Shown: piece by piece, positions 3-34,632 of the stretch
How positions within the stretch are numbered: the first letter of the stretch is position 1
Layout: each line of letters starts with the position of its first letter
Assembly: GCA_964359725.1 (NCBI GenBank)
Contig: CAYHTT010000003.1
Location: 1 to 40,782, forward strand
Length of the DNA stretch: 40,782 bases
Origin: Candidatus Woesearchaeota archaeon
GTDB lineage: Archaea > Nanobdellota > Nanobdellia > SCGC-AAA011-G17 > GW2011-AR20
Direction of reading: 5' to 3'
Program-made: the position numbers and the translations under genes
Notes under the pieces: model-generated
Databases searched by the model: none
Seen by the model: only the letters and a program-made list of their open reading frames with translations
What the model was told of the DNA's origin: nothing

Positions 3-275
3 GATTTACCACAGAACTATTCCTTAAAACAGAACTACCCGAACCCTTTCAATCCCTCGACAACGATTGAATTTGAAATCCCAAATATAAGTTATACAAC
101 TTTAAAGATATTTAATATCTTAGGTGGGGAATTAGAAACATTAGTTAATAAAGAACTTTCTCCTGGAAGTTATAAAGTAAATTGGGATGCTAAAAATTTA
201 TCAAGCGGTATTTACTTTTATCAATTAAAGACTAATGATTATATAAATACAAAAAAAATGCTCCTTTTAAAATAA
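3..275 (+). CDS. 5'-truncated CDS; C-terminal ~90 aa is a type IX secretion (Por) C-terminal sorting domain-like module
   Basis: Manual translation from position 3: DLPQNYSLKQNYPNPFNPSTTIEFEIPNISYTTLKIFNILGGELETLVNKELSPGSYKVNWDAKNLSSGIYFYQLKTNDYINTKKMLLLK*. Has the NYPNPFNP, ..IFNILG, LSSGIYFY and KKMLLLK-stop hallmarks. Absent from the ORF track because its start lies outside the window. Confidence 0.9.
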   Translation, partial: DLPQNYSLKQNYPNPFNPSTTIEFEIPNISYTTLKIFNILGGELETLVNKELSPGSYKVNWDAKNLSSGIYFYQLKTNDYINTKKMLLLK

Positions 276-444
276 TTAATAAAAAGTTTTAAATTCATAA
301 TCCTAGAAAGAATAAATTTTGTAGCCCATAACAATATCATTAAGCATCTAAAAAATTATTTATAAATTGTTTAATCTAATTTTAAAAAACTAAATAACAT
401 AAATTTTATATACAGTCTATTGTTTATAATTTAAAGGTGATATT

Positions 445-1956
445 GTGAAAGTTTATGGTAATTTTATAAATGGAAAATTTGTTAAGCCATTATCTAAAAA
501 ATATCTTAATGTTATTAATCCTTATAATGAAAAAACTATAGCGAAAGTTCCTGATTCTAATAAAAAAGATGTTGATCTAACTGTAAATGCTGCAAGAAAA
601 TCATTTGACTCAGGAATATGGAATGAGATGACTGTTGGAGAAAGAAGTTCTTATTTATTAAAATTAGCTGATTTAATTGAAAAAAATTTACTTAAAATTG
701 CAAAGCTTGAATCAATGAATCAAGGTAAAACAATTAAAATGGCTCGTGATTCGGATATACCTTTTGCAATTGATAATTTAAGATTTTTTGCAGGTGCTGC
801 TCGTTCAATGAAAGATGTAACACCACAAGAATATATTGATTATCATGAGAAAAGAAAACATAAACCTCTAGGCACAAGTTTAATTAAACGTGAACCTATT
901 GGAGTTGTAGCAAGTATTACACCATGGAATTATCCTTTTATGATGGCTATATGGAAAATTGGACCTGCATTAGCAATGGGTAATACAGTTGTAATTAAAC
1001 CAGCTTCTACTACTCCATTAACAACTTTAGAATTAGCAATATTGGCAAAAAAAGTTGGAATTCCAGATGGTGTATTAAATGTCGTTACAGGTTCTGGACA
1101 AGTGGTTGGCGCTGCTCTTGCATCACATGAAAAAGTTGATATGATTTCTTTAACAGGAAATACAGAAACTGGAAAAGAAATTCAAAAACTTGCAACTAGC
1201 AATTTAAAAAAATTACATCTTGAGCTTGGGGGAAAAGCTCCATTTATTGTTTTAGAGGATGCTGATTTAGAAGCTGCTGCTGAAGGTGCTATTGTAGCTA
1301 GCATAGTTAATAGTGGACAAGATTGTACTGCTGCTGCTCGCATCTATGTACATAGTAAAATTCATAATCAATTTATAGAAAAATTAAAACATAAAGCTAT
1401 GAAAGTTCGTTTAGGCAACCCATTAAAAGAAACTACAGATTTAGGACCTTTAAACAGCAAAACCCATTTAGAACGTGTACAAAATTTTGTTAAAATTGGA
1501 AAAAAAGAAGGTGCAAGAATTTATTATCAAGGTAAAAAACCAAAAGGTAAAGGCTATTTTATGCCTATTCACATAATGACAAATGTAAATCAAAAATCTA
1601 ATTTATGCCAGCAAGAAATTTTCGGTCCAATACTTAATGTTCTTAAATTTAATAATACACAAGATGTTATTCAAAAAGCAAATGATGTTGATTATGGTTT
1701 AGCAAGTAGCGTATGGACAAAAGATATTAAAAAAGCTTTTATTGTAGCAAATAAATTAAAATTTGGTGAAGTTTGGATTAATGATCATTTACCTTTAGTA
1801 AGTGAGATGCCTCATGGGGGAGTAAAACAAACAGGCCATGGAAGAGATTTAAGTGTGTATGCATTAGAAGAATATAGTAATGTTAAGCATGTTTATATTG
1901 ATTTAAGTGGGAAAGCAAGAAAACCTTGGCATTATACTGTTTATGGTAAAAAATAA
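445..1956 (+). CDS. NAD-dependent aldehyde dehydrogenase, probably aminobutyraldehyde/betaine-aldehyde type
   Basis: PWNYP, KPAS, TGNTETG, LELGGKAP (catalytic Glu), NSGQDC (catalytic Cys), EIFGP. GTG start preceded by SD-like AAGGTGA. Confidence 0.93.
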   Translation: MKVYGNFINGKFVKPLSKKYLNVINPYNEKTIAKVPDSNKKDVDLTVNAARKSFDSGIWNEMTVGERSSYLLKLADLIEKNLLKIAKLESMNQGKTIKMARDSDIPFAIDNLRFFAGAARSMKDVTPQEYIDYHEKRKHKPLGTSLIKREPIGVVASITPWNYPFMMAIWKIGPALAMGNTVVIKPASTTPLTTLELAILAKKVGIPDGVLNVVTGSGQVVGAALASHEKVDMISLTGNTETGKEIQKLATSNLKKLHLELGGKAPFIVLEDADLEAAAEGAIVASIVNSGQDCTAAARIYVHSKIHNQFIEKLKHKAMKVRLGNPLKETTDLGPLNSKTHLERVQNFVKIGKKEGARIYYQGKKPKGKGYFMPIHIMTNVNQKSNLCQQEIFGPILNVLKFNNTQDVIQKANDVDYGLASSVWTKDIKKAFIVANKLKFGEVWINDHLPLVSEMPHGGVKQTGHGRDLSVYALEEYSNVKHVYIDLSGKARKPWHYTVYGKK

Positions 1957-1997: not shown

Positions 1998-2699
1998 ATG
2001 GAAGTTAGAGGAAAATTAATACATTGTGTAGATATTGTAAAATGTGAAGAACCAAAAGAAGAGATTAATTATTACTTAGAAGAGAATGAACTAGATTTTA
2101 ATTCTTTTAGAAATATTTTCTTTAAAGATTTTAATTTGCAATATATTTTATATTATGCTATTGATCGTAATATTCATCTGCATATAGCAACACACTCAAA
2201 AGCAACAAGTACTTGCGAAGAAAAATCTCAAATAACAGGATTGCCATTAGAAAGGGTAATTAAAGGAGTTTATTTAGAGGATACTAAAGAAGAAAAAACC
2301 TATGCAATTTCAATACCTGGAACAAAACATTCTTCTGATATTAGATTAAAGCTTGCAAATTTTCTTGGAATAAATGATTACGAAATTATAAAAGATAATA
2401 GAATAAGAAAAGCGAGAAAAGAATTTTTACCAGTAAATATAGAATATGGAACAGTCCATCCTATTGTAAATTTAGAAAGTTTTACCCCAAACGGAAAATT
2501 AGAATTAATATTATTTGATAAAAAATATTTAGAAAAGAGAAGATTAGAAAATGGTTTAGACGATTTCTCATTTACAACACACCCAAGTACTGGTTACGAC
2601 AATCATAGAATTTCATTACAAATAAATTATGCAAGCTTATTTGAAATTTTAAGATTTACATTTGGGGATGAAAAAGTAAAAACTATTGATTTAATTTAA
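1998..2699 (+). CDS. Divergent YbaK/ProX-like aminoacyl-tRNA editing-domain protein
   Basis: Pattern T.EE....G....VIK..YL......AISIPG....LA.FLG....R.A and a GxxxP motif (YGTVHP) resemble the YbaK/INS fold; N- and C-terminal extensions. Confidence 0.55.
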   Translation: MEVRGKLIHCVDIVKCEEPKEEINYYLEENELDFNSFRNIFFKDFNLQYILYYAIDRNIHLHIATHSKATSTCEEKSQITGLPLERVIKGVYLEDTKEEKTYAISIPGTKHSSDIRLKLANFLGINDYEIIKDNRIRKARKEFLPVNIEYGTVHPIVNLESFTPNGKLELILFDKKYLEKRRLENGLDDFSFTTHPSTGYDNHRISLQINYASLFEILRFTFGDEKVKTIDLI

Positions 2700-4315: not shown

Positions 4316-5605
4316 TTAAGGTGTATAGCGCAACATTGTTCTTGGAAATGGAATAGCATCCTTAATATTATCTAATTTACACAACCATGCAACTACTCTT
4401 TCTACACCTAAACCATAACCAGCATGTGGTACACTTCCATATTTTCTAGTATCAAAATACCATTCATAATTCTCAGCTTTCTCACCTTGTTTTTTTAACC
4501 ATTTCTTTAATTCATTAATATTTATATCACGTTGACTCCCTCCAATAAGTTCTCCATAGCCTTCTGGAGCAAGCATATCAAAACAAAGAGCTTCTTTAGG
4601 ATTTTTTGTATCTACTGGTTTGTAAAATGCCATTATTTCTTTTGGATAATGGGTAACGATTAATGGTTTGTCAAAATGTTTCATAATTAAATCCTCTTCT
4701 ATTGTTCTTAAATCTTTACCAAACGGGATATTAATTTTTTCTTTTTCTTTAAGCATTTTTAATACTTCGGCATATTTTAATCTAGGAAATGGTGGTTTAA
4801 TTTTCTTTAATTTTTCAATATCTTGCCCTAGTAATTTTAATTCTTTAGAATTTTCTTTAACAACACTTTGCACAATATAAGCAACACATTCTTCTGCTGA
4901 TTTTACTAAATCATTTAAGTTATACCAAGCAGCTTCCATCTCAGCCATCCAAAATTCTGCTAAATGTCTGCTTGTCTTGCTTCTTTCTGCGCGAAAACAT
5001 GGTGAAATACAAAATATTTTTTCTAAAGCAAATATTGCAGCTTCAGCATAAAGTTGCCAAGATTGTGTAAGATAAACTTTTTTATCAAAATATTTTACTT
5101 CAAATAATGTTGCACCTCCTTCACTTGCTAAAGGCGTGAATATTGGTGGTGCCATTTCATAAAATCCTTGTTTATAATAATAATCCCGGAAAGCTTTCAT
5201 AACTGTGCTGCGTATTTTCATTACCGCAGTTAAATTTCTACTTCTAATCCATAAATGTCTTTTATCGAGTAAAAACTCGGGACTTTGATCTTTTTTTATT
5301 GGAAATACATCTGCAAATTGTATTACCTTTAGTTTAGAAACTTGTATTTCATATCCAGTAGGAGCTCTTTTATCTTGTTCTAATATGCCTTCTAGTTCAA
5401 CAGAACTTTCAATTAATAATTTATTAGCATCTTCCCATTCTTTCTTGCTTACTTTATCTTGCTTTACTACGCATTGAATTATATTACTAGAATCACGAAT
5501 AACTAAAAAAACCATATCTTTTTGTTTTCTTTCACGATAAACCCAACCACGAATTGGGACTTTTCCTTTCCTTTTCTTTAGTACTTCTTCTATTGAAATA
5601 AACAT
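4316..5605 (-). CDS. asnS: Asparagine--tRNA ligase
   Basis: OB-fold start IRGWVYR, LLDKRHLWIRS, EGGATLF, YLTQSWQLY, motif 2 FRAERSKTSRHLAEFW, GELIGGSQR, motif 3 YGSVPHAGYGLGVER. Confidence 0.93.
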   Translation of the reverse strand: MFISIEEVLKKRKGKVPIRGWVYRERKQKDMVFLVIRDSSNIIQCVVKQDKVSKKEWEDANKLLIESSVELEGILEQDKRAPTGYEIQVSKLKVIQFADVFPIKKDQSPEFLLDKRHLWIRSRNLTAVMKIRSTVMKAFRDYYYKQGFYEMAPPIFTPLASEGGATLFEVKYFDKKVYLTQSWQLYAEAAIFALEKIFCISPCFRAERSKTSRHLAEFWMAEMEAAWYNLNDLVKSAEECVAYIVQSVVKENSKELKLLGQDIEKLKKIKPPFPRLKYAEVLKMLKEKEKINIPFGKDLRTIEEDLIMKHFDKPLIVTHYPKEIMAFYKPVDTKNPKEALCFDMLAPEGYGELIGGSQRDININELKKWLKKQGEKAENYEWYFDTRKYGSVPHAGYGLGVERVVAWLCKLDNIKDAIPFPRTMLRYTP

Positions 5606-7585: not shown

Positions 7586-8884
7586 TCAAGGTGTTAATCT
7601 TTCTCTATCTCTTGGAAATAAACAAGCTTCTCTAATATTATCTAATTTTAATAATGCCATCGTAAATCTTTCAAGACCGATGGACCAGCCAGAATGGGGT
7701 GCACCACCGTAGCGAAATGCATTTACATAAAATTCAAAATCTTTTGGGTTTAATCCTTGTAATTTTAATCTCCTAATTAATAATTCGGGTAAATGTACAC
7801 GTTGTCCACCAGAACTAATCTCGATTCCATTATATAAAGCATCAAATCCTTTACTTAGTTTTTCATTATCTTTTAAGCTAGCTGGCATAATATAAAAAGG
7901 TTTTAAGCTTAAAGGCCATGCATAAATGAATACAATATTATTAGAATAAATCCCCCCTAATTTTTTTTCAGCTTCTGGTGTTAAATCTTCTCCATATTTA
8001 ATATTCATTTTATTTTTGCTAAGAATTTTTAAAGTTTCATCATAACTCAAATATTTAGCTTTAGGGATTTTTAACTTTAAATTTAACATCTCAAGCTCTT
8101 CTTTACAATTTTTAATAACATTTTTAATAATGTATTGAACTGCTTGCTCTAAGTATTTCATAACTTGAAAATCATCATTAAATGCAACTTCAATATCCAT
8201 TTGTCTTGATTCATTTAAATGCCTAACTGTATTATGTTTTTCAGCTCTCCAAACTGGGGTTATTGTAAATACTTTTTCTAAGGAAATAGCACATAATTGT
8301 TTATATAATTGAGGACTTTGAGCTAAGTAAGCCTGTTTTTCAAAATATTTTACAGAAAATAATTCTGTACCTCCTTCACTTGCACTTGCTATAATACTCG
8401 GACATTGAATCTCAATAAAATCATTCTTCTTAAAAAATTCTTTAAATAAAGTAGAAATTTCGCTTTGTATTTTAAATATTGCTTGTGTTCTTTTTTTTCT
8501 TAAATCTAAACTTCTATTATCTAATCTTACACTTAAATCTGTTACAATACTTTTATCTTTTTCATAAACTTGCATTGGTAATTTCTCTGCTTTACTTATT
8601 AACTCTAAATTATTAACCTCAACTTCATAATTTTTAATACTTAATTCAGGACTAGTAAGTTTAGCTTGCTTAACTTTACCTGCAATTGAAATTACACTTT
8701 CTAAGCTTAATTTAGAAATATTATTAAAAGCTTTATTTTCAGGCTTAACAACGCATTGTACTACACCAGTAATATCTCTTAACAAAATAAATTTAGCTTT
8801 TGGTAGCTCACGAATATCATGGACCCAACCTTGTAAAAAAACTTCTTTTTTTCCTTTAATATCATTAACATAAGTACGTTGCAT
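7586..8884 (-). CDS. aspS: Aspartate--tRNA ligase, archaeal type
   Basis: LQGWVHDIR, RLDNRSLDLR, SEGGTELF, YLAQSPQLYKQ, WRAEKHNTVRHLNE, EISSGGQR, PHSGWSIGLER, LFPRD; 432 aa, with no bacterial insertion. Confidence 0.95.
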   Translation of the reverse strand: MQRTYVNDIKGKKEVFLQGWVHDIRELPKAKFILLRDITGVVQCVVKPENKAFNNISKLSLESVISIAGKVKQAKLTSPELSIKNYEVEVNNLELISKAEKLPMQVYEKDKSIVTDLSVRLDNRSLDLRKKRTQAIFKIQSEISTLFKEFFKKNDFIEIQCPSIIASASEGGTELFSVKYFEKQAYLAQSPQLYKQLCAISLEKVFTITPVWRAEKHNTVRHLNESRQMDIEVAFNDDFQVMKYLEQAVQYIIKNVIKNCKEELEMLNLKLKIPKAKYLSYDETLKILSKNKMNIKYGEDLTPEAEKKLGGIYSNNIVFIYAWPLSLKPFYIMPASLKDNEKLSKGFDALYNGIEISSGGQRVHLPELLIRRLKLQGLNPKDFEFYVNAFRYGGAPHSGWSIGLERFTMALLKLDNIREACLFPRDRERLTP

Positions 8885-14399: not shown

Positions 14400-15797
14400 T
14401 TATTTTTTATATTTTTGTATTAACCCAATTAATTTATTGCCACTTATTTTACCTTTATATCTACTCATTAAAATTCCCATTATAGCATTTACACTTAAAT
14501 CCTTTTTTTCTTGAATAATTTTTTTAATTTCTTTTTCAATCTGAGAATAATCTACTACCTTATATTTTTCTAGATTAATTTTTTTACCTTCTCTTAAATC
14601 ATTTAATATTTCATTAATAACATCTTTTGTTATCTTGCCAGAATTTAATGCATTTAAAACAAATTCTAAATTTTCTTTTTTCTCTTTATTATAATTTATT
14701 AATGTACTAGCTAATAAACCCTTACTAATATTTTTATATTTACTAGCATAATAATTAAAATCAATATTTTGTTTGATTAACTGACTACCAGACACATAAC
14801 TTAAGTTAAATTCATTTTGTAATTCTTTAATTTTTTCTGGAATTAATTTTGGTAAGATAATATCTTTAGCTAAACTTTGTGTTTTTATAGCTAAAATATC
14901 CGTGTCTGGATAAAGTCGTGCTGCTCCGGGTAATGGTCTTAAGAAACTTGTTGTACCATCGTCATTAGCCTTTCTTACTTCTTCTTCAACTTTTTTGCCT
15001 TGTTTTATAATGTTAAGTTGTCTTTGAATTTCATATTCAATAACTTTAGGCATAATTCTTATATCTTGAAACCCTTTTATCTCAACTCTTGCACCATTTT
15101 TAATACTTAAGTTTACATCTTGCCTTATTGTTCCAATACCTCGTAAAACATTTTCAAAACTTCTTAAAATCATCCCAATTTTTTCTGCAATTTCTTTAGC
15201 ATGTTCTGGAGTTTTTATATCTGGTTCTGTTCTTATTTCTAAGAGGGGTATTCCCTGACGCGACAAAGAATAATATACCTTATTTCCTTCTATTTTTTCA
15301 ATTTTACAAGCATCTTCTTCTAAACATAAACTTGTAATTCTAACTTTTCCTAAAGAAGTTTCAATAAAAGAATCTTTAGTTTCAGTTCCAATTAAAGCTG
15401 TTCTCTGAAAAGAACTACAAGCACTTCCATCAGCTATAACTTTTCTCATTACTATAATTTCATCTGAAATTCTAAGTTTGAATAATTTTGCAACAGATAA
15501 AGCAGTAATTAAAGCATCTTGATTAATTTCATAGGGAGGCTGATCATCGCAATCTACAAGGCAATACTCATTTTTATAACCATGATAAAAAAATTCACGA
15601 TCTCTTGATTGTTCAAATTCTGCTGCAACATCAACATAACCTAGCTCCCCTGCAGAAGCCTTTAATTTTCTTAAGAACTCTAATTCTAAATCTTTCTCTT
15701 TAAACTGAGTTGAGCATTTACAAAAAAGTTTTTGGCTAGAAATTTGCTGGTGAATTTCCAAACCTATTCTAAGTCCTAATTCTTTATAGTCTAACAT
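14400..15797 (-). CDS. gatE: Glu-tRNA(Gln) amidotransferase subunit E, short form
   Basis: DYKELGLRIGLEIHQQ, KLFCKC, MRK...DGS..S.FQRT, LEEDAC, GIPLLEI, RGIGTIRQDVNLSI, RPLPGAARLYP; 465 aa. Confidence 0.95.
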   Translation of the reverse strand: MLDYKELGLRIGLEIHQQISSQKLFCKCSTQFKEKDLELEFLRKLKASAGELGYVDVAAEFEQSRDREFFYHGYKNEYCLVDCDDQPPYEINQDALITALSVAKLFKLRISDEIIVMRKVIADGSACSSFQRTALIGTETKDSFIETSLGKVRITSLCLEEDACKIEKIEGNKVYYSLSRQGIPLLEIRTEPDIKTPEHAKEIAEKIGMILRSFENVLRGIGTIRQDVNLSIKNGARVEIKGFQDIRIMPKVIEYEIQRQLNIIKQGKKVEEEVRKANDDGTTSFLRPLPGAARLYPDTDILAIKTQSLAKDIILPKLIPEKIKELQNEFNLSYVSGSQLIKQNIDFNYYASKYKNISKGLLASTLINYNKEKKENLEFVLNALNSGKITKDVINEILNDLREGKKINLEKYKVVDYSQIEKEIKKIIQEKKDLSVNAIMGILMSRYKGKISGNKLIGLIQKYKK

Positions 15798-16974
15798 TTT
15801 GTTTAATGGGTAAATTATTGGTGTTTAAATTTTGAGGATGTCTAATTGCTCTAGCAAAAAATATCCCTAAAACTCCATTAGGATAAATGGGTTCTCCTTT
15901 TCCAGTAAAAGTTGGTTTAGTTTTAAAGATTTTATTTATTTTAAAAATAATTTTATTGTAATCTAAATTTAAAAGTTTAGAATAGTTTCTTGAGATTATC
16001 AATCCATATGGTATCGGTCTAACAATTCTAGAAATTTCATAAAGATTTTTGTTAAATTTATATGGAAGAATAACACTATACTTAGAACCTTTACCCATTT
16101 TTAATTTGAAATTAGACAAATTCTTATAAATACTTTTTTTGTTTAATCCTTTAGATTCTAAAAGCTTATACAATCTACTAAATTTTACATTCTTCCTATT
16201 CCTATAAAATCCATTTATAATCTTATATTTTTTAATAAGATCTAAACCATTTTCTACGTAAGCATTAGTATTGAATAGAAATTTTTTATAGTCTAAATAA
16301 TTATTTTTATATAGTTTATTAAAATTTATTATATTCCTTTTATAAAATTCTTTTTTTACATGTTTTTCTATCCAAAGTTTTTTCCTTGGATGTGTAAAAC
16401 TCAATTTTTTATAATAATCCCTAATATAAAAAGAGGGTATTGTAACCCTAAAATAAGTGCGTTTGTTAATTATCCTCTCAGAATATTTAAACCCAATATT
16501 CTCTTTTAATAAAAAAGTCTTAAAAGAATTTATTAATTTTTTAGCGCAAACATCTAGTACAACCTTTCTAGAGTTTCTAGCAACCATTCCATCACAATCC
16601 ATAAATCCCAACCAAAAATATTTTTCTAAACTGGTTTTTTTATAAATTTTTGGTAGATCGACAATTAATGCCTTTTTTCCAGGATTTATATTAAAACACT
16701 TTATTAAAATATGACCAAATTCTTTACTTTTGAAGTACAAAACATACAAATTTCCTCTTTTTCTCATATGTAAATTAATTCTAAAATAGTTTGATAAAAT
16801 TCGTTTAATATTATTTAAATGTTTTAATGAGTATTTTAATTCATTTTTTACAGAAGTACCATCATAAAATTCGAAGGCATAATATTTTTTTTCTTTTAGA
16901 TAAAAACATCCATCTGCCATAAACACTCCTATTAAATATGCAAAATCTGGCTCTTTTATTTGCAGTTCTTTCAT
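15784..16974 (-). CDS. Free-standing double-motif LAGLIDADG endonuclease-like protein
   Basis: Two LAGLIDADG helices, AYLIGVFMADG and FWLGFMDCDG; very Lys-rich. ATG at 16974 forms an ATGA overlap with the upstream stop (ORF track start 16986 is the alternative). Confidence 0.82.
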   Translation of the reverse strand: MKELQIKEPDFAYLIGVFMADGCFYLKEKKYYAFEFYDGTSVKNELKYSLKHLNNIKRILSNYFRINLHMRKRGNLYVLYFKSKEFGHILIKCFNINPGKKALIVDLPKIYKKTSLEKYFWLGFMDCDGMVARNSRKVVLDVCAKKLINSFKTFLLKENIGFKYSERIINKRTYFRVTIPSFYIRDYYKKLSFTHPRKKLWIEKHVKKEFYKRNIINFNKLYKNNYLDYKKFLFNTNAYVENGLDLIKKYKIINGFYRNRKNVKFSRLYKLLESKGLNKKSIYKNLSNFKLKMGKGSKYSVILPYKFNKNLYEISRIVRPIPYGLIISRNYSKLLNLDYNKIIFKINKIFKTKPTFTGKGEPIYPNGVLGIFFARAIRHPQNLNTNNLPIKQNVRL

Positions 16975-17693
16975 CTTCGGTTCCATATTGAGTGAAAATA
17001 TTCTTTAAATTTATTTGCAATATCCTTTGAAGTTATTAAAGTTGCTAATGGTTTATCTTTGAATGAAGTAAATAAAACTTTGTCTTCATGTATATCTATG
17101 TTGCCCGGGATTGGAAAATCTACGTATTTCATTTTGAATGATGTTTTTTTAATAAATTTTGATTTTTTATAATGTATATTAGCTATTCCTTTAACTCTGT
17201 GATTTTTAAATTTATTGTATAAACGCATCCAAAATTTGTCTATTTCTTCATAATCTTGTTCTGCAATATAAAAAAATAAATATTCCTCTTTATTATCACC
17301 TTCCATCAGTCTTTCATAAGCTGTCTTTACTCCATTAAAACCAATAAAGACTTCTGCTTCTTGCTTTTCCTGTAGTTTTTGCAATCTCTCTAAATCTGGG
17401 ATTAATTTTTTCAATGATAATTTTTCTTTTTCTATTTTTTGTTCTTTTTTGTCTAAATATTCATTTAATGGTGAAAAACTAGTAACTTGGAAATATTTTG
17501 TCTTTTCTTTAATTATGAACGAGATTAAGCCTTTTTCAAGTAATCTATTTAAAATTTCATAAATGTTTGAGTAAGCAACTTTAGCTTCTTTAACTATTGG
17601 CCCCACTGTTGAACTGCCTAATTTAGTTAAAGCTAAGTAAACTTTTGCTTCTCCATCTGTTAATCCTAAATTCATTAATAATTCTTTTTCCAT
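16971..17693 (-). CDS. TrmB-family transcriptional regulator
   Basis: LGLTDGEAKVYLAL..LG, IYEILNRLLEKGLI wHTH; G..GVK linker; C-terminal effector domain ending F..YF.SIW. Confidence 0.9.
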   Translation of the reverse strand: MEKELLMNLGLTDGEAKVYLALTKLGSSTVGPIVKEAKVAYSNIYEILNRLLEKGLISFIIKEKTKYFQVTSFSPLNEYLDKKEQKIEKEKLSLKKLIPDLERLQKLQEKQEAEVFIGFNGVKTAYERLMEGDNKEEYLFFYIAEQDYEEIDKFWMRLYNKFKNHRVKGIANIHYKKSKFIKKTSFKMKYVDFPIPGNIDIHEDKVLFTSFKDKPLATLITSKDIANKFKEYFHSIWNRR

Positions 17694-25006: not shown

Positions 25007-26884
25007 ATGCTAGAACTTATCCAAGATATTCGTGGCTATAATGAGAATGCGGACTTTGATTTAATTACTAAAGCATATGAATTTGCAAAAAAAGCTCATT
25101 CTGGACAAGTACGTGAATCAGGAGAAGAGCACATTTCTCATTTAGTTGGTGCAGCTAGAATATTAATAAAATTAAAGGTTGATGATAAAACTATTGCTGC
25201 ATGCTTATTACATGATATATTAGAAGATACAAATATTACTAAACAGCAATTAGAAAAAGAATTTGGAGAGGAGATTGCTTATTTAGTAGGGGGAGTAACT
25301 AAAATAGATAAATTAAGAATTTCTGACTTTAAAATCAGGCAGGCCGAAAGTATTAGGAAAATGTTATTTGCAACAGCTCAAGATATTAGAGTAATAATAA
25401 TTAAATTAGCTGACAGAGTAGATAATATGTTAAGCTTGCAATATTTTCAAGAGGAAAAACAAAAAAGAATTGCTCAGGAAACTCTAGATGTTTATGCACC
25501 AATTGCTTATAGACTTGGATTGTTTAATATTAAATGGCAGCTCGAAGATTTAGCATTTCGTTATTTAGAGTCTAAAATTTATCAAGAATTGAAAGAAAAA
25601 GTAGCTCAAAAAAGAGAACAACGTGAACTCTATCTAGAAAAAATAAAATCAATTTTAGAAGAACAATTAACTAAGTATAATATTAAAGCTGAAATCAGAA
25701 GCAGGCCAAAAAGTTTTTTTAGCATTTACAGAAAAATGCAGAAAAAAGAAGTTGATTTTAATAAAATATATGATTTACTTGGAATTAGAATAATTACAAA
25801 TGATGTTAAAGAATGTTATGAAGTTCTTGGAATAATTCATAATTTATGGAAACCTATACCAAGAGAATTCGATGATTATATAGCTAATCCTAAACCAAAT
25901 ATGTATCAAAGTTTACATACAGTTGTTGTTGGACCAGAAAAACAATTAATTGAATTTCAAATAAGAACTTACGAAATGGATAAAATCTCAGAAGAAGGTA
26001 TAGCTGCTCATTGGCAATATAAAGATATTAAAGGCGATTTTAAATTTGATAAACAACTTTCTTGGCTTCGAGAAGTTATTGGATTAAAGGATAAATCAAG
26101 TCAAGAATTTTTTGAAACTTTAAAATTAGATTTATTTAGCTATAATATTTATGTATTTACACCCAATGGTGATATCATTGGATTACCAAAAGACTCAACT
26201 CCAGTAGACTTTGCTTATGCTATTCACACAGATGTTGGAAGCAGGTGCAGTGGAGCAAGAGTAAATGGTAAGTATGTAAATTTAAAACATGAACTTGAGA
26301 ATGGTGATATTATAGAGATAATAACTTCAAAAAATCATATTCCTAGTAGAGACTGGCTTAAGTTTGTAAAATCTCAAAAAGCTAAAGAAAGAATAGTACA
26401 TATGCTTAAAATTCATCAAAATATTCCCGCTAAAAAATTTACTGAATTAGAAGAGATTAAACAAAGTTTAATTCAAGCTGATATTAATTTTAATGAATCT
26501 AAATTAGCTGAATGTTGTAATCCTTTACCAGGTGATATTATAGTTGGGTATGCTACTAAAAATAATAAAATTAGCATACATAAGCAAAATTGCGATAAAC
26601 TAAGTAATTTAAAATTAAAAAAAGTTAATGTGAAATGGAAAGAAATTCCTGAGTCAAGTATTAATTTAAAGATTTTAGCTTTAGATAGAGTTGGATTATT
26701 CGCGGATATTTTATATAATGTAGCTCAAATTGGTATTAATGTTGATAAAGCTAATGTTGATACAATAAATAAAGATTTGGCAGAATGTAATTTAAAACTC
26801 GAGCTAAATAAATTAGAGGATGTAAGGAAAATTGTTGAAAGGATTAAGAAGATGGCTGATGTTAAAAAAATAAGTATTAGTTAA
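25007..26884 (+). CDS. rel: Long RelA/SpoT homologue, (p)ppGpp synthetase/hydrolase (HD-SYNTH-TGS-ZFD-ACT)
   Basis: HD: AHSGQVRESGE, LLHDILEDT, GVTK, IKLADR. Synthetase: RPKS..SIYRKM, YDLLGIR, EFDDYIANPKPNMYQSLHT, EFQIRT, AAHWQYK. TGS: VFTPNGD..TPVDFAYAIHT..VNG. ZFD: CCNPLPGD...IH...C. ACT: DRVGLFADI. Confidence 0.97.
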   Translation: MLELIQDIRGYNENADFDLITKAYEFAKKAHSGQVRESGEEHISHLVGAARILIKLKVDDKTIAACLLHDILEDTNITKQQLEKEFGEEIAYLVGGVTKIDKLRISDFKIRQAESIRKMLFATAQDIRVIIIKLADRVDNMLSLQYFQEEKQKRIAQETLDVYAPIAYRLGLFNIKWQLEDLAFRYLESKIYQELKEKVAQKREQRELYLEKIKSILEEQLTKYNIKAEIRSRPKSFFSIYRKMQKKEVDFNKIYDLLGIRIITNDVKECYEVLGIIHNLWKPIPREFDDYIANPKPNMYQSLHTVVVGPEKQLIEFQIRTYEMDKISEEGIAAHWQYKDIKGDFKFDKQLSWLREVIGLKDKSSQEFFETLKLDLFSYNIYVFTPNGDIIGLPKDSTPVDFAYAIHTDVGSRCSGARVNGKYVNLKHELENGDIIEIITSKNHIPSRDWLKFVKSQKAKERIVHMLKIHQNIPAKKFTELEEIKQSLIQADINFNESKLAECCNPLPGDIIVGYATKNNKISIHKQNCDKLSNLKLKKVNVKWKEIPESSINLKILALDRVGLFADILYNVAQIGINVDKANVDTINKDLAECNLKLELNKLEDVRKIVERIKKMADVKKISIS

Positions 26885-27875: not shown

Positions 27876-29453
27876 TTAAATTATTCTTTTTCGTTCTTCA
27901 TTATTTAATAACCAAACTTTTTCACCACAAAAATGATAACCCTCAGGACAATTTCTACGAGAATCAGCTTTGTAAGCAATATCACAAGGGGCACCAAACC
28001 ATTTACCAATTAATGGATGTACTTTTGTAATCTGGTCTACTTCATCTGATGTGGCTTGCCAAATTTCTTTTTGTGCATTATAACAAAGTCTTTCAACAAA
28101 TTTTTTTCTTAAATGAAGCAAGCTTCCAGATTCTATAAATCTTATAGGATAAGCATTGGGAAGCAAATAAGCAACATATTGTGAATTAGCATTATTTTCC
28201 AATAAATAATTTATATTATTAAAAATAAGTTTCATGGTAGCTTTATATGTACTTAAAGCTTTTTCATCATCTTTTATCAAATCAGGAATAATATAATCTG
28301 GTTCTCCGAAATAATGCTGCATTATAAATGGTCTACTACCAAGAACTCCGCGATGTCTTTGATCCTGAGAATCGGCACTATGACTTAATTTTTTCTTAAA
28401 TGTATAATAAACATTATTTAAAGCCCTAGTTATCTTACTCATCATTGTAATATTTAAAGGCCCTAACAAATAAGGGTCTTTAGCCGGATTTAATAGTAAA
28501 TAAACAGCTTCTTCATCACTTAATTCTTGTTCAGTTAATCCAAATTCAGTTCTTAATGAATCACCTAAAATACGATAAGGATTATTTGGATGGTCAATTA
28601 ATTTTGATATATGATCTTTTAAAGATTCATCAAATTCTTCAACAAATTTTCTATTTCTATGAAAATCTATTTTATCCCCTTTATATTTTTCTATTAATCT
28701 ATGTTCTAAAGTATCCTCAAATTTTATTGAATTCTTAACCATTAAAATATTTGGGTCGAATTTTTTGGCTTCATTAATCATTTCATTAACAACAATTCTT
28801 GCTTCTTCTGATACATCACACATCTCTGCGCAATAATAATAACGTTGTAATGTTAAAGTATTAATCGTATGATATAAGTGAGATTTAGTTGCAATAGGTA
28901 AAACATATCTTGTTATTTCTTGGGTTTTTCTGTTTACTTCTCTATCACCTTCTTCTGTACCTTTATCTTTTGGGAATAATCTATAATATTTTTGTTCTAC
29001 AGTTGGTTTAAGCATTTCAAATAAACCATTATCAACAAGTAATTGAAATTCTAAAGTTTCTTTATACACCAAATTTAAATCATTGTTTCGAAAATCTGGG
29101 ATTACAAAATCATCTAATGTCATTTTTCTATATTTTCTATCAAATCTTTGGCTATCTTGATTAGAATTATGGAACGGTTGATCATGAAATAATGACCATA
29201 TTAATAATCTTGAAACACCGCTTATACCAAAAACAAGGTGTGCGTGGCCAAAGGGAGTGTGGTGTTCTGCGTTATATAGTTGTATTCTTAATCTATCCCA
29301 GTGTTCTCTTGTCTCACCTTTTTTAATACCAACATCTTTTGGTTTAATAAGTTCTGGGGAATAACAACTTCTAGCTGATGCAACAGCTAAATCGCTTGGA
29401 TTTTCTATTATATCAATTAGTTCTATATTTGGTTTACTTGATAAAAATACCAT
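27876..29453 (-). CDS. Long, two-domain ThyX/Thy1-like FAD-dependent thymidylate synthase
   Basis: First module AEHHTPFGH..LVFGISGVSR...SQRF...RYVLP; second module SHSADSQDQRHR...YLLPNA...RLC..AQ.EI. Confidence 0.8.
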   Translation of the reverse strand: MVFLSSKPNIELIDIIENPSDLAVASARSCYSPELIKPKDVGIKKGETREHWDRLRIQLYNAEHHTPFGHAHLVFGISGVSRLLIWSLFHDQPFHNSNQDSQRFDRKYRKMTLDDFVIPDFRNNDLNLVYKETLEFQLLVDNGLFEMLKPTVEQKYYRLFPKDKGTEEGDREVNRKTQEITRYVLPIATKSHLYHTINTLTLQRYYYCAEMCDVSEEARIVVNEMINEAKKFDPNILMVKNSIKFEDTLEHRLIEKYKGDKIDFHRNRKFVEEFDESLKDHISKLIDHPNNPYRILGDSLRTEFGLTEQELSDEEAVYLLLNPAKDPYLLGPLNITMMSKITRALNNVYYTFKKKLSHSADSQDQRHRGVLGSRPFIMQHYFGEPDYIIPDLIKDDEKALSTYKATMKLIFNNINYLLENNANSQYVAYLLPNAYPIRFIESGSLLHLRKKFVERLCYNAQKEIWQATSDEVDQITKVHPLIGKWFGAPCDIAYKADSRRNCPEGYHFCGEKVWLLNNEERKRII

Positions 29454-34538: not shown

Positions 34539-34632
34539 CGCCAGAGCGAGGATTCGAACCTCGAAGTCCTTTCGGACGGCAGTTTTCTTTATGAAGTTCG
34601 AGACTGCTGCAATACCGTTATGCGACCCTGGC
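34539..34632 (-). tRNA. tRNA-Ser(CGA) with a 12-nt intron at position 37/38; CCA not encoded
   Basis: Reverse complement: GCCAGGG TC GCATAACGGTATTGC A GCAGT CT CGA A [CTTCATAAAGAA] A ACTGC CGTCCGAAAGGACTT CGAGG TTCGAAT CCTCG CTCTGGC G. All stems pair, with a long variable arm and G discriminator; intron at 34585-34596. Confidence 0.93.

Follow-up and report, generated by a model that had tools for sequence, protein, structure and literature searches.

A type IX secretion sorting domain on a horizontally acquired gene of a Woesearchaeota archaeon

PorZ of Porphyromonas gingivalis carries two β-propellers, is itself a component of the secretion system known as type IX (T9SS) and retains its C-terminal domain (CTD), the type of tail with which this paper is concerned. 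We know of no Ycf48-like propeller protein with a CTD of the Pfam family PF18962 whose function has been tested. The motifs by which these domains are described are the PNPF-type N-terminal motif, the G..Y strand and the basic C-terminal strand. According to a 2025 review, CTD-containing proteins are limited to the Fibrobacteres-Chlorobi-Bacteroidetes (FCB) superphylum (PMC12398890). Here we describe a type A T9SS CTD encoded at the very start of a contig from Candidatus Woesearchaeota archaeon, a member of the DPANN archaea (named after Diapherotrites, Parvarchaeota, Aenigmarchaeota, Nanoarchaeota as well as Nanohaloarchaeota). The window, by which we mean the whole stretch of 40,782 nucleotides that was analysed, is the entire contig C3 of the draft genome G000 (521,207 bases in 33 contigs, 89% complete, 0.29% contamination). 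The CTD belongs to one intact gene split between two contigs, and three independent lines of evidence (composition, synteny and relatives) mark this gene as foreign and horizontally acquired.

A 5'-open frame occupies positions 3..275 of the forward strand, at the start of the window; its 90 codons and TAA stop read ...NYPNPFNPSTTIEFEI...LSSGIYFYQLKTNDYINTKKMLLLK and, in another excerpt, ...QNYPNPFNPSTTIEFEI...LSSGIYFYQLKTNDYINTKKMLLLK. It is the sole open reading frame (ORF) of at least 40 amino acids on either strand of positions 1-444, and it was missed by the ORF track, as the first-pass annotation had reported, because the start of the contig cuts the frame. The NCBIfam profile TIGR04183 (Por_Secre_tail, T9SS type A sorting domain) matched residues 12-87 over positions 2-70 of its 72 (E 2.5e-11, 43.4 bits for a curated cut-off of 23 bits) and Pfam PF18962 matched residues 12-86 (E 2.1e-11, 44.4 bits for a cut-off of 27 bits), while CHU_C and FlgD_ig, with 20.3 and 18.4 bits on the 90-residue frame, both stayed under their cut-off of 27. 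Three further NCBIfam matches (T9SS-dependent M36 and M6-like peptidases, PorU) were set aside, being far under their cut-offs and arising only through the CTD-like ends of these models. The match of the hidden Markov model (HMM) ends 3-4 residues ahead of the stop, showing that the domain is truly C-terminal. In an alignment of 17 CTDs (A2), N14, P15, F16, G41, G55 and Y71 are invariant and all of them are intact here, and the last strand TKKMLLLK fits the consensus TKKMxLxK. The 90-residue tail is a genuine type A T9SS CTD; with both families over their cut-offs and archaeal genes on either side, the claim of such a domain on an archaeal contig is borne out.

The structural data agree with this assignment. 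AlphaFold2 modelled the 90 residues alone with a mean predicted local distance difference test (pLDDT) of 95.5 and six strands, and a Foldseek search with this model matched immunoglobulin-like (Ig-like) sandwiches in general. Ranks 3, 4 and 5 went to the CTD-bearing PorZ (5m11), to the CTD of NucA from a T9SS substrate complex (8glk_D) and to a domain of an S-layer protein (7ptp_A), respectively. The predicted Ig-like β-sandwich would thus suit a T9SS CTD but does not discriminate, since generic Ig-like domains score equally. Compared with the chains of the PDB at the sequence level, the CTD gave a weak match only (E 0.18), to the C-terminal part of the ice-binding protein 5uyt.

A second TIGR04183 match in the genome (C14:8351-8521, 24.3 bits) was rejected as a C-terminal CTD: it covers residues 104-160 of a 445-aa protein and falls under the cut-offs at the protein level (22.3 bits versus 23 for TIGR04183, 16.8 versus 27 for PF18962). 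This protein (G000:C14:8042-9379, L008) is predicted to be exported and has a weak internal Por_Secre_tail/CHU_C-like Ig domain, so that the genome contains the fold twice, this second copy being either decayed or distant. An N-terminal leader common to the CTD protein and two proteins of C14 was considered too and found unsupported, with tblastn E-values of 0.044 and 1.7 only.

The first-pass annotation had proposed recovering the sequence upstream of the frame, and this was achieved. The 464 codons at the end of contig C22 form a 3'-open frame, and its final residues, ...DKDLPQNYSLKQNYPNPFN, continue into the frame of the window across an exact overlap between the contig ends (Table 1). Positions 3-275 are therefore the 3' end of one intact gene (C22:4061/4070-5454 plus positions 56-275 of the window) coding for 537 or 534 aa, depending on the start. 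A public gene call of 534 aa (P0001, from a 12,375-nt contig) agrees with the C22 part at 100% identity and has the 90 residues of the window as its C-terminus; P0217, its cluster mate, has 537 aa. The 534-codon frame contains neither stops nor frameshifts. On C22 it follows genes for proteasome alpha, SBDS, Rrp4, Rrp41 and Rrp42 (Pfam assignments) and a 70-codon gene for RpoK/Rpb6 (PF01192, 35.2 bits, cut-off 26), whose stop lies 18 nt upstream of the first ATG of the CTD-protein gene. Exact overlaps of 55 bases join 16 pairs of contig ends in the G000 bin, with a single partner per end (e.g., C22-C3-C7-C29-C14); judging from the contig sequences, such one-to-one overlaps are the signature of neighbours in the assembly graph. 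As a side observation, a large part of the draft could be scaffolded from these overlaps alone.

The junction is confirmed by Logan contigs from sequencing runs other than the likely source, which come from two studies in all, X5 belonging to a different one. Record 9 of X3 (2,480 nt) shows 0 differences over positions 1-960 of the window and reaches 1,520 nt upstream, record 2 of X2 covers positions 26-694 and record 18 of X5 positions 84-878, again with 0 differences. Bridging by these contigs of both the junction and positions 275-445, where the first-pass annotation had asked for read support, excludes a misjoin. It had also named in advance two results that would speak against it, a failed HMM match and a mis-joined bacterial fragment; the models matched and the join proved sound. 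Run X6 leaves positions 336-603 without cover, a hole in the data, and a high-GC contig of this run shares only positions 30-61, i.e., the stretch coding for NYPNPFNP, which explains why the assembly graph branched and the contig ended there. The remainder of C3 is archaeal in gene content, with GatD, a GatE-type catalytic domain, aTrm56, ribosomal P0 with an RL10P insert, TrmB and DUF357. Its FtsZ is 91% identical to the FtsZ of a Candidatus Woesearchaeota archaeon, the other best matches being titled Woesearchaeota, Nanoarchaeota or Nanoarchaeia, and the GC content is about 26-27% all along the contig, first kilobase included.

The full-length protein begins with MSLKNKLKTLAKYGLVLAGLTFGL..., a lysine-rich start followed by the hydrophobic stretch YGLVLAGLTFGL, probably a Sec signal peptide or a signal anchor; SecD and SecF are both encoded in the window. 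Residues ~90-440 hold Asp-box repeats, with matches to Sortilin-Vps10 (PF15902, 37.8 bits, cut-off 33) and to the bacterial neuraminidase repeat (BNR) family BNR_6 (PF15899, 30.1 bits, cut-off 27), and NCBIfam NF045728 (F510_1955 glycosylhydrolase) reached 49.3 bits only for a cut-off of 175. AlphaFold2 predicted an all-β propeller followed by a β-sandwich (mean pLDDT 73.3), for which Foldseek found Bacteroides sensor propellers, PorZ (5m11, rank 13), sialidases, sortilin and GH74 enzymes, as well as Ycf48 (5oj3, target-normalised template modelling score 0.64) and the BNR glycosyl-hydrolase-like 3b7f (0.58). According to these models, the BNR/Asp-box, Ycf48-like propeller may be a glycan- or ligand-binding module or a hydrolase. 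The architecture proposed for recovery is thus a propeller followed by a CTD.

Composition sets this gene apart from its neighbours. Its GC content at third codon positions, 0.227 over the full length and 0.244 within the window, compares with 0.140 ± 0.026 for the 282 ORFs of at least 200 aa in G000, and its codon fit (z of about -3.5) ranks 1, the worst, of these 282 ORFs. Codon usage is unremarkable in the genes for RpoK, Rrp42, the aldehyde dehydrogenase (ALDH) that follows, the next ORF (ORF233) and AspRS. Synteny tells the same story. Rrp42 was found in 25 of the 27 genomes of the same family (G000 counted) and RpoK comes after it in 22 of the 24 loci of the other genomes. None of these 24 loci has a homologue of the CTD protein in the 1.2-1.5 kb downstream of Rrp42-RpoK, and none has an ALDH homologue in the 1.2-1.5 kb downstream of RpoK. 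The three closest relatives (G491, the single-contig G184 and G487, with Rrp42 identities of 75-77%) have an ORF233 homologue of 60-63% identity directly after RpoK. Relative to this closest genus, G000 therefore contains ~3.4 kb extra between RpoK and ORF233, made up of the foreign-looking CTD-protein gene and the native-looking ALDH gene.

The third line of evidence comes from the relatives of the protein. The best homologues of its cargo part show 23-41% identity over partial lengths, the best long alignment being to P0100 (31% over 429 columns). These homologues, 97 in number, mostly have ~700 aa, commonly with a BNR/Sortilin plus PF18962 architecture, and those with names come from Lentimicrobium, Bacteroidota, Balneolaceae and Rhodothermia metagenome-assembled genomes (MAGs). 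P0098, P0099 and P0100 were rejected as close full-length orthologues: their scores, higher than those of pure CTD matches, stem from two CTD-like stretches each and they are 25-39% identical over the aligned parts. All three have a CTD-like stretch near the N-terminus, then an apparent new signal peptide and a second CTD at the end, a layout that may result from two adjacent genes read as one or from a stop-codon issue in the source. Searched alone, the CTD is up to 64-69% identical to bacterial CTDs on unrelated cargoes such as subtilisins; among the 12 listed matches with an organism name, 7 are Ignavibacteriota-type, 3 are Bacteroidota/Bacteroidetes, 1 is 'bacterium BRH_c32' and 1 is a Kariarchaeaceae archaeon MAG. 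Identities to this CTD in alignment A2 are 40-58% for the seven Ignavibacteria sequences and 32-52% for nine archaeal ones. Compared with 151 genomes of the same order, P0001 matched in 8 other genomes, almost exclusively over residues ~440-534 and with 28-47% identity. These sequence comparisons point to a donor in the FCB group, most likely among the Ignavibacteriota. This copy would then have been acquired separately, from an Ignavibacteriota-like bacterium, rather than inherited in common with other archaea.

The machinery that reads such a domain in bacteria was looked for in the same genomes. SprA (TIGR04189) and PorV (NF033710) had no match in G000 or in the CTD-carrying relatives G253, G329 and G039; the Ignavibacteriaceae control G484 was over the cut-off for SprA and reached 259 bits for PorV (cut-off 250). 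The PorU model (NF033707) was matched in G000 by the CTD itself only, with 21.7 bits for a cut-off of 420. The search for T9SS genes that the first-pass annotation had suggested thus did not find sprA or porV, and porU was seen solely through the CTD. A machine of some twenty components would in any case be very unlikely in an archaeal genome of 0.52 Mb.

The same domain recurs across the phylum. The TIGR04183 search of the genome and its relatives, another of the checks proposed, was over cut-off in 55 of the 401 sampled genomes and in 39 of 281 genera, a tally that counts G000 and the unpublished G243 (54 of 400 without the latter). One of the positive bins, G329 (C7:2990-3547 and contigs C2, C6, C11 and C19), has 10 matches with Flavobacteria-like tails and a GldM-like fragment (85.7 bits, under the cut-off of 180), and is possibly an archaeal bin contaminated by Bacteroidota. 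Other matches lie in single-contig genomes (G009, G184, G220) or deep within long contigs (G390, G232, G039, G091, G217), and that of G320 is on a 126,651-nt contig together with ribosomal S2, RNase J and Sua5. In 13 of 19 loci from relatives the domain closes the protein, leaving 0-6 residues behind it; in the other 6 it is followed by at least 300 residues or runs to the end of the locus. Several of these six non-terminal copies combine a signal peptide, the domain at about residues 100-200 and a long C-terminal part. In G253, which belongs to the same order, two tandem paralogues of 496 and 492 aa (L131, G253:C6 8608-10098 (-) and 10128-11606 (-); L009) have a signal peptide, a Por_Secre_tail/FlgD_ig-type domain at residues ~117-192 and then ~300 residues with an HExxH motif. 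Judging from these sequences, a domain placed so near the N-terminus is unable to work as a secretion tag of the C-terminal kind. The motif of the last strand (T-K/R-K-M/I-x-L/V) is kept in the non-terminal copies, which indicates that its conservation is structural. The cargoes in the relatives are surface modules: Reg_prop propellers, Big domains, CarboxypepD_reg, β-helix, LVIVD and leucine-rich repeats (LRR), and Fib_succ_major.

We propose the following scenario. The gene, coding for a BNR propeller that is exported and bears a T9SS tail, would have moved from an Ignavibacteriota-like bacterium into this DPANN archaeon, where it landed behind the exosome/RpoK operon. The protein would be exported by Sec and presumably reach the cell surface. 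With neither SprA nor PorV found and no outer membrane expected, the CTD could not serve T9SS export in this cell; it would stay on the mature protein as a stable Ig-like β-sandwich, acting as a spacer or an adhesion module. We infer this present role of the CTD from sequence, and consider it probable that the protein is a transferred surface protein whose CTD is now a plain Ig-like module; in all likelihood, the CTD no longer works as a T9SS signal. Horizontal transfer with the domain retained as an Ig-like module was one of two explanations offered by the first-pass annotation, and it fits the foreign codon usage, the sister genomes without the gene and the missing SprA and PorV.

Several points weigh against this scenario. 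Even the best relatives of the cargo share just 24-31% identity with it, so that either the donor is unsampled or the transfer was not very recent, and the scan of named genomes for a donor, in which 9 of 9 confirmed loci were Ignavibacteria-type (37-58% identity), was biased by the peptide patterns of the query (e.g., DYINTKKM). The GldK and GldM models matched neither G000 nor the Ignavibacteria control, and this part of the gene search is hence uninformative. As G000 is 89% complete, the T9SS parts are 'not found' rather than proven absent, and the count of 55 genomes may include bin contamination. Export is argued from an N-terminus that is poorly modelled (pLDDT below 50 for residues 1-45), and none of the 16 sequencing runs listed is on record as RNA. 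Finally, the CTD retains all family-conserved positions of alignment A2, which could reflect selection for a signal function, even though the non-terminal archaeal copies keep these motifs too.

This last point bears on the other explanation of the first-pass annotation, that the protein mimics or engages PorV/PorU of a bacterial partner. The CTD would then still be a T9SS-type tag, docking on PorV or the attachment complex at the outer membrane of an Ignavibacteriota-like host and so tethering the archaeon or hijacking the surface-anchoring step. Besides the intact positions, one can invoke the nearest CTDs, which are Ignavibacteriota-type at 64-69% identity while the cargo is ~30% identical to anything, and the recurrence of the domain in a phylum whose members are presumed symbionts (55 of 401 genomes). 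However, Ignavibacteriota-type CTDs on unrelated cargoes are equally similar, so the high identity needs no special selection, and simple transfer explains the nearest CTDs equally well. Moreover, the 6 of 19 archaeal copies located near the N-terminus or internally are unable to act as a C-terminal tag and still keep the conserved last strand, which is thus structural, and there is no evidence of physical association. The T9SS recognition known from bacteria occurs within the periplasm and at the translocon rather than from the cell exterior. We regard such a tag as highly unlikely, and we give slightly less credit still to its extended form, in which the orphan CTD is an interface to T9SS-bearing Ignavibacteriota, with a Woesearchaeote living on or beside them and its exported propeller captured by the partner's PorV/attachment complex. 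If true, the latter would mean that a DPANN archaeon takes advantage of a system by which bacteria secrete and anchor proteins, and the host would probably be bacterial. A reader within the archaeon itself is a less remote idea, yet still improbable: the CTD would then be co-opted as a sorting or anchoring signal of a non-T9SS pathway, e.g., for attachment to the S-layer or envelope. The 13 of 19 relatives' loci in which the domain is terminal on unrelated cargoes (Reg_prop propellers, Big domains, β-helix, LRR/LVIVD, Fib_succ_major) would fit this idea, as would the S-layer protein domain 7ptp_A at rank 5 among the Foldseek matches. The terminal position, however, is simply inherited if whole bacterial genes were transferred, 6 of 19 copies are non-terminal, the fold match to Ig-like domains is generic and no candidate reader protein was identified.

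The two remaining explanations concern the gene as a whole. It might be a recent passenger that has not yet been purged, unexpressed or functionless in the archaeon; its codon usage deviates most strongly in the genome, the 24 same-family loci have no orthologue at the site, and its cargo lacks a close archaeal relative among the 151 genomes of the order, where nearly all matches are through the CTD alone. Set against this are the intact 534-codon frame, identical where covered in contigs of runs from two studies, the start 18 nt behind RpoK, the last gene of a core operon, a position that makes transcription more likely, and the size of the genome, since genomes of 0.52 Mb would rarely keep useless DNA. 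We judge a passenger unlikely, a little less so than an archaeal sorting signal. The least credible explanation is an artefact, i.e., a bacterial fragment joined to the archaeal contig by misassembly or binning. The contig does break inside the most conserved stretch coding for the CTD, the foreign high-GC contig shares positions 30-61, and the codon usage is unlike the rest of the genome. But archaeal genes lie on both flanks, the RpoK...ORF233 synteny of the sister genus spans the join, P0001 is an independent full-length gene call, and three other runs, belonging to two studies, yielded contigs that cross the junction as well as positions 275-445 with 0 differences. A surface protein acquired by transfer, with its CTD kept as an Ig-like module, is thus the reading we retain.

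The literature that we searched holds nothing on type IX secretion together with DPANN. Searches for Por_Secre_tail or TIGR04183 with archaea, judged by titles and the start of abstracts, returned nothing on archaeal CTDs, and T9SS terms are absent from the main text of two DPANN papers (PMC8204110, PMC9938205). One archaea-related paper mentions Por_Secre_tail, only as a Gram-negative anchoring domain, and at least one protein of an archaeal MAG (P0138) is already entered in databases as a T9SS type A sorting domain protein. We deal here with a known domain family in an unexpected host and with a recurrent, apparently undescribed pattern in DPANN archaea. The gene provides a clean counter-example to the restriction of CTDs to FCB bacteria, with proof at the level of the chromosome (archaeal flanks, synteny, independent contigs), and documents gene flow from Ignavibacteriota-type bacteria to groundwater DPANN archaea, in which a bacterial sorting domain is reused as a surface module, at times in a non-terminal position. 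In practice, when automatic annotation calls an archaeal gene product a 'T9SS type A sorting domain-containing protein', this should be taken as evidence neither of a T9SS nor of contamination, and given bins such as G329, tallies over the phylum need checks contig by contig.

Table 1. Coordinates of the CTD-coding end and its surroundings in the window.
Feature	Position	Strand	Evidence
55-base overlap with the end of C22 (C22:5400-5454), link to the upstream 464 codons	1..55	.	100% identity; covers the NYPNPFN-coding stretch
End of linker and type A T9SS CTD, last 90 codons of the 534-aa (or 537-aa) gene	3..272	+	TIGR04183, PF18962, AlphaFold2; identical to the C-terminus of P0001
Core of the TIGR04183 match on DNA	36..263	+	Profile search of the G000 contigs: 42.4 bits, positions 2-70 of 72
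TAA stop codon	273..275	+	Frame reading
AT-rich spacer between the CTD gene and the next gene	276..444	.	Bridged by X2 record 2, X3 record 9 and X5 record 18
Aldehyde dehydrogenase (ALDH) gene	445..1956	+	PF00171, 557 bits; native codon usage, codon fit z +0.9
233-aa ORF (ORF233) of unknown family, synteny anchor	1998..2699	+	Homologue follows Rrp42-RpoK in L134, L135 and L138 (tblastn, 60-63% identity)

Farther along the window, other genes deserve mention in their own right. A 400-aa ORF at 15784-16986 (-) contains LAGLIDADG domains (LAGLIDADG_3 with 31.1 bits, and weaker WhiA-type and LAGLIDADG_2 matches); it comes after a TrmB-type regulator, shares 14 nt with the beginning of the gene for the GatE-type (GatB_N) protein at 14400-15797 (-), and could be a free-standing homing endonuclease or an intein remnant. 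A full-length bacterial-type RelA/SpoT homologue (HD_4, RelA_SpoT, TGS and ACT) is encoded at 25007-26884 (+), in a DPANN genome of 0.52 Mb. At 34539-34632 (-) lies a 94-nt tRNA (Rfam, 39.9 bits) that ARAGORN missed and that probably contains an intron, and at 27876-29453 (-) a ThyX that contains two Thy1 stretches and, at 525 aa, is roughly double the normal size. The window also encodes, 2 kb apart at 4316-5605 (-) and 7586-8884 (-), two paralogues among the class II tRNA synthetases of the Asp/Lys/Asn type; together with GatD and GatE elsewhere in the window, this pair bears on how Asn- and Gln-tRNA are formed in the organism.

Returning to the known systems, the domain resembles a type A T9SS CTD on an Ignavibacteriota or Bacteroidota cargo in its family score, C-terminal position, conserved positions, Ig-like fold and predicted N-terminal export leader. 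The host is what differs, being here a single-membrane DPANN archaeon in which neither SprA nor PorV was found, and for this reason the CTD is unable to direct outer-membrane translocation, cleavage by PorU or anchoring to anionic lipopolysaccharide (A-LPS). With PorZ (5m11) the protein shares the order of propeller(s) followed by a T9SS CTD, at an identity of 13-18% and with no sign of orthology. Among bacteria, the 'photosystem II stability/assembly factor-like' proteins that end in PF18962 (P0100, P0002, P0016) have the same succession of putative leader, BNR/Asp-box propeller and CTD, but the archaeal protein is shorter (534 aa versus ~700 aa for most of these Ycf48-like proteins) and its propeller is highly diverged. 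Finally, the Por_Secre_tail-like domains of other DPANN (Nanoarchaeota-type) are found over the cut-off of the same HMM and on diverse surface-type cargoes; they are 32-52% identical to this CTD, to which bacterial CTDs are closer, and they are attached to different cargo.

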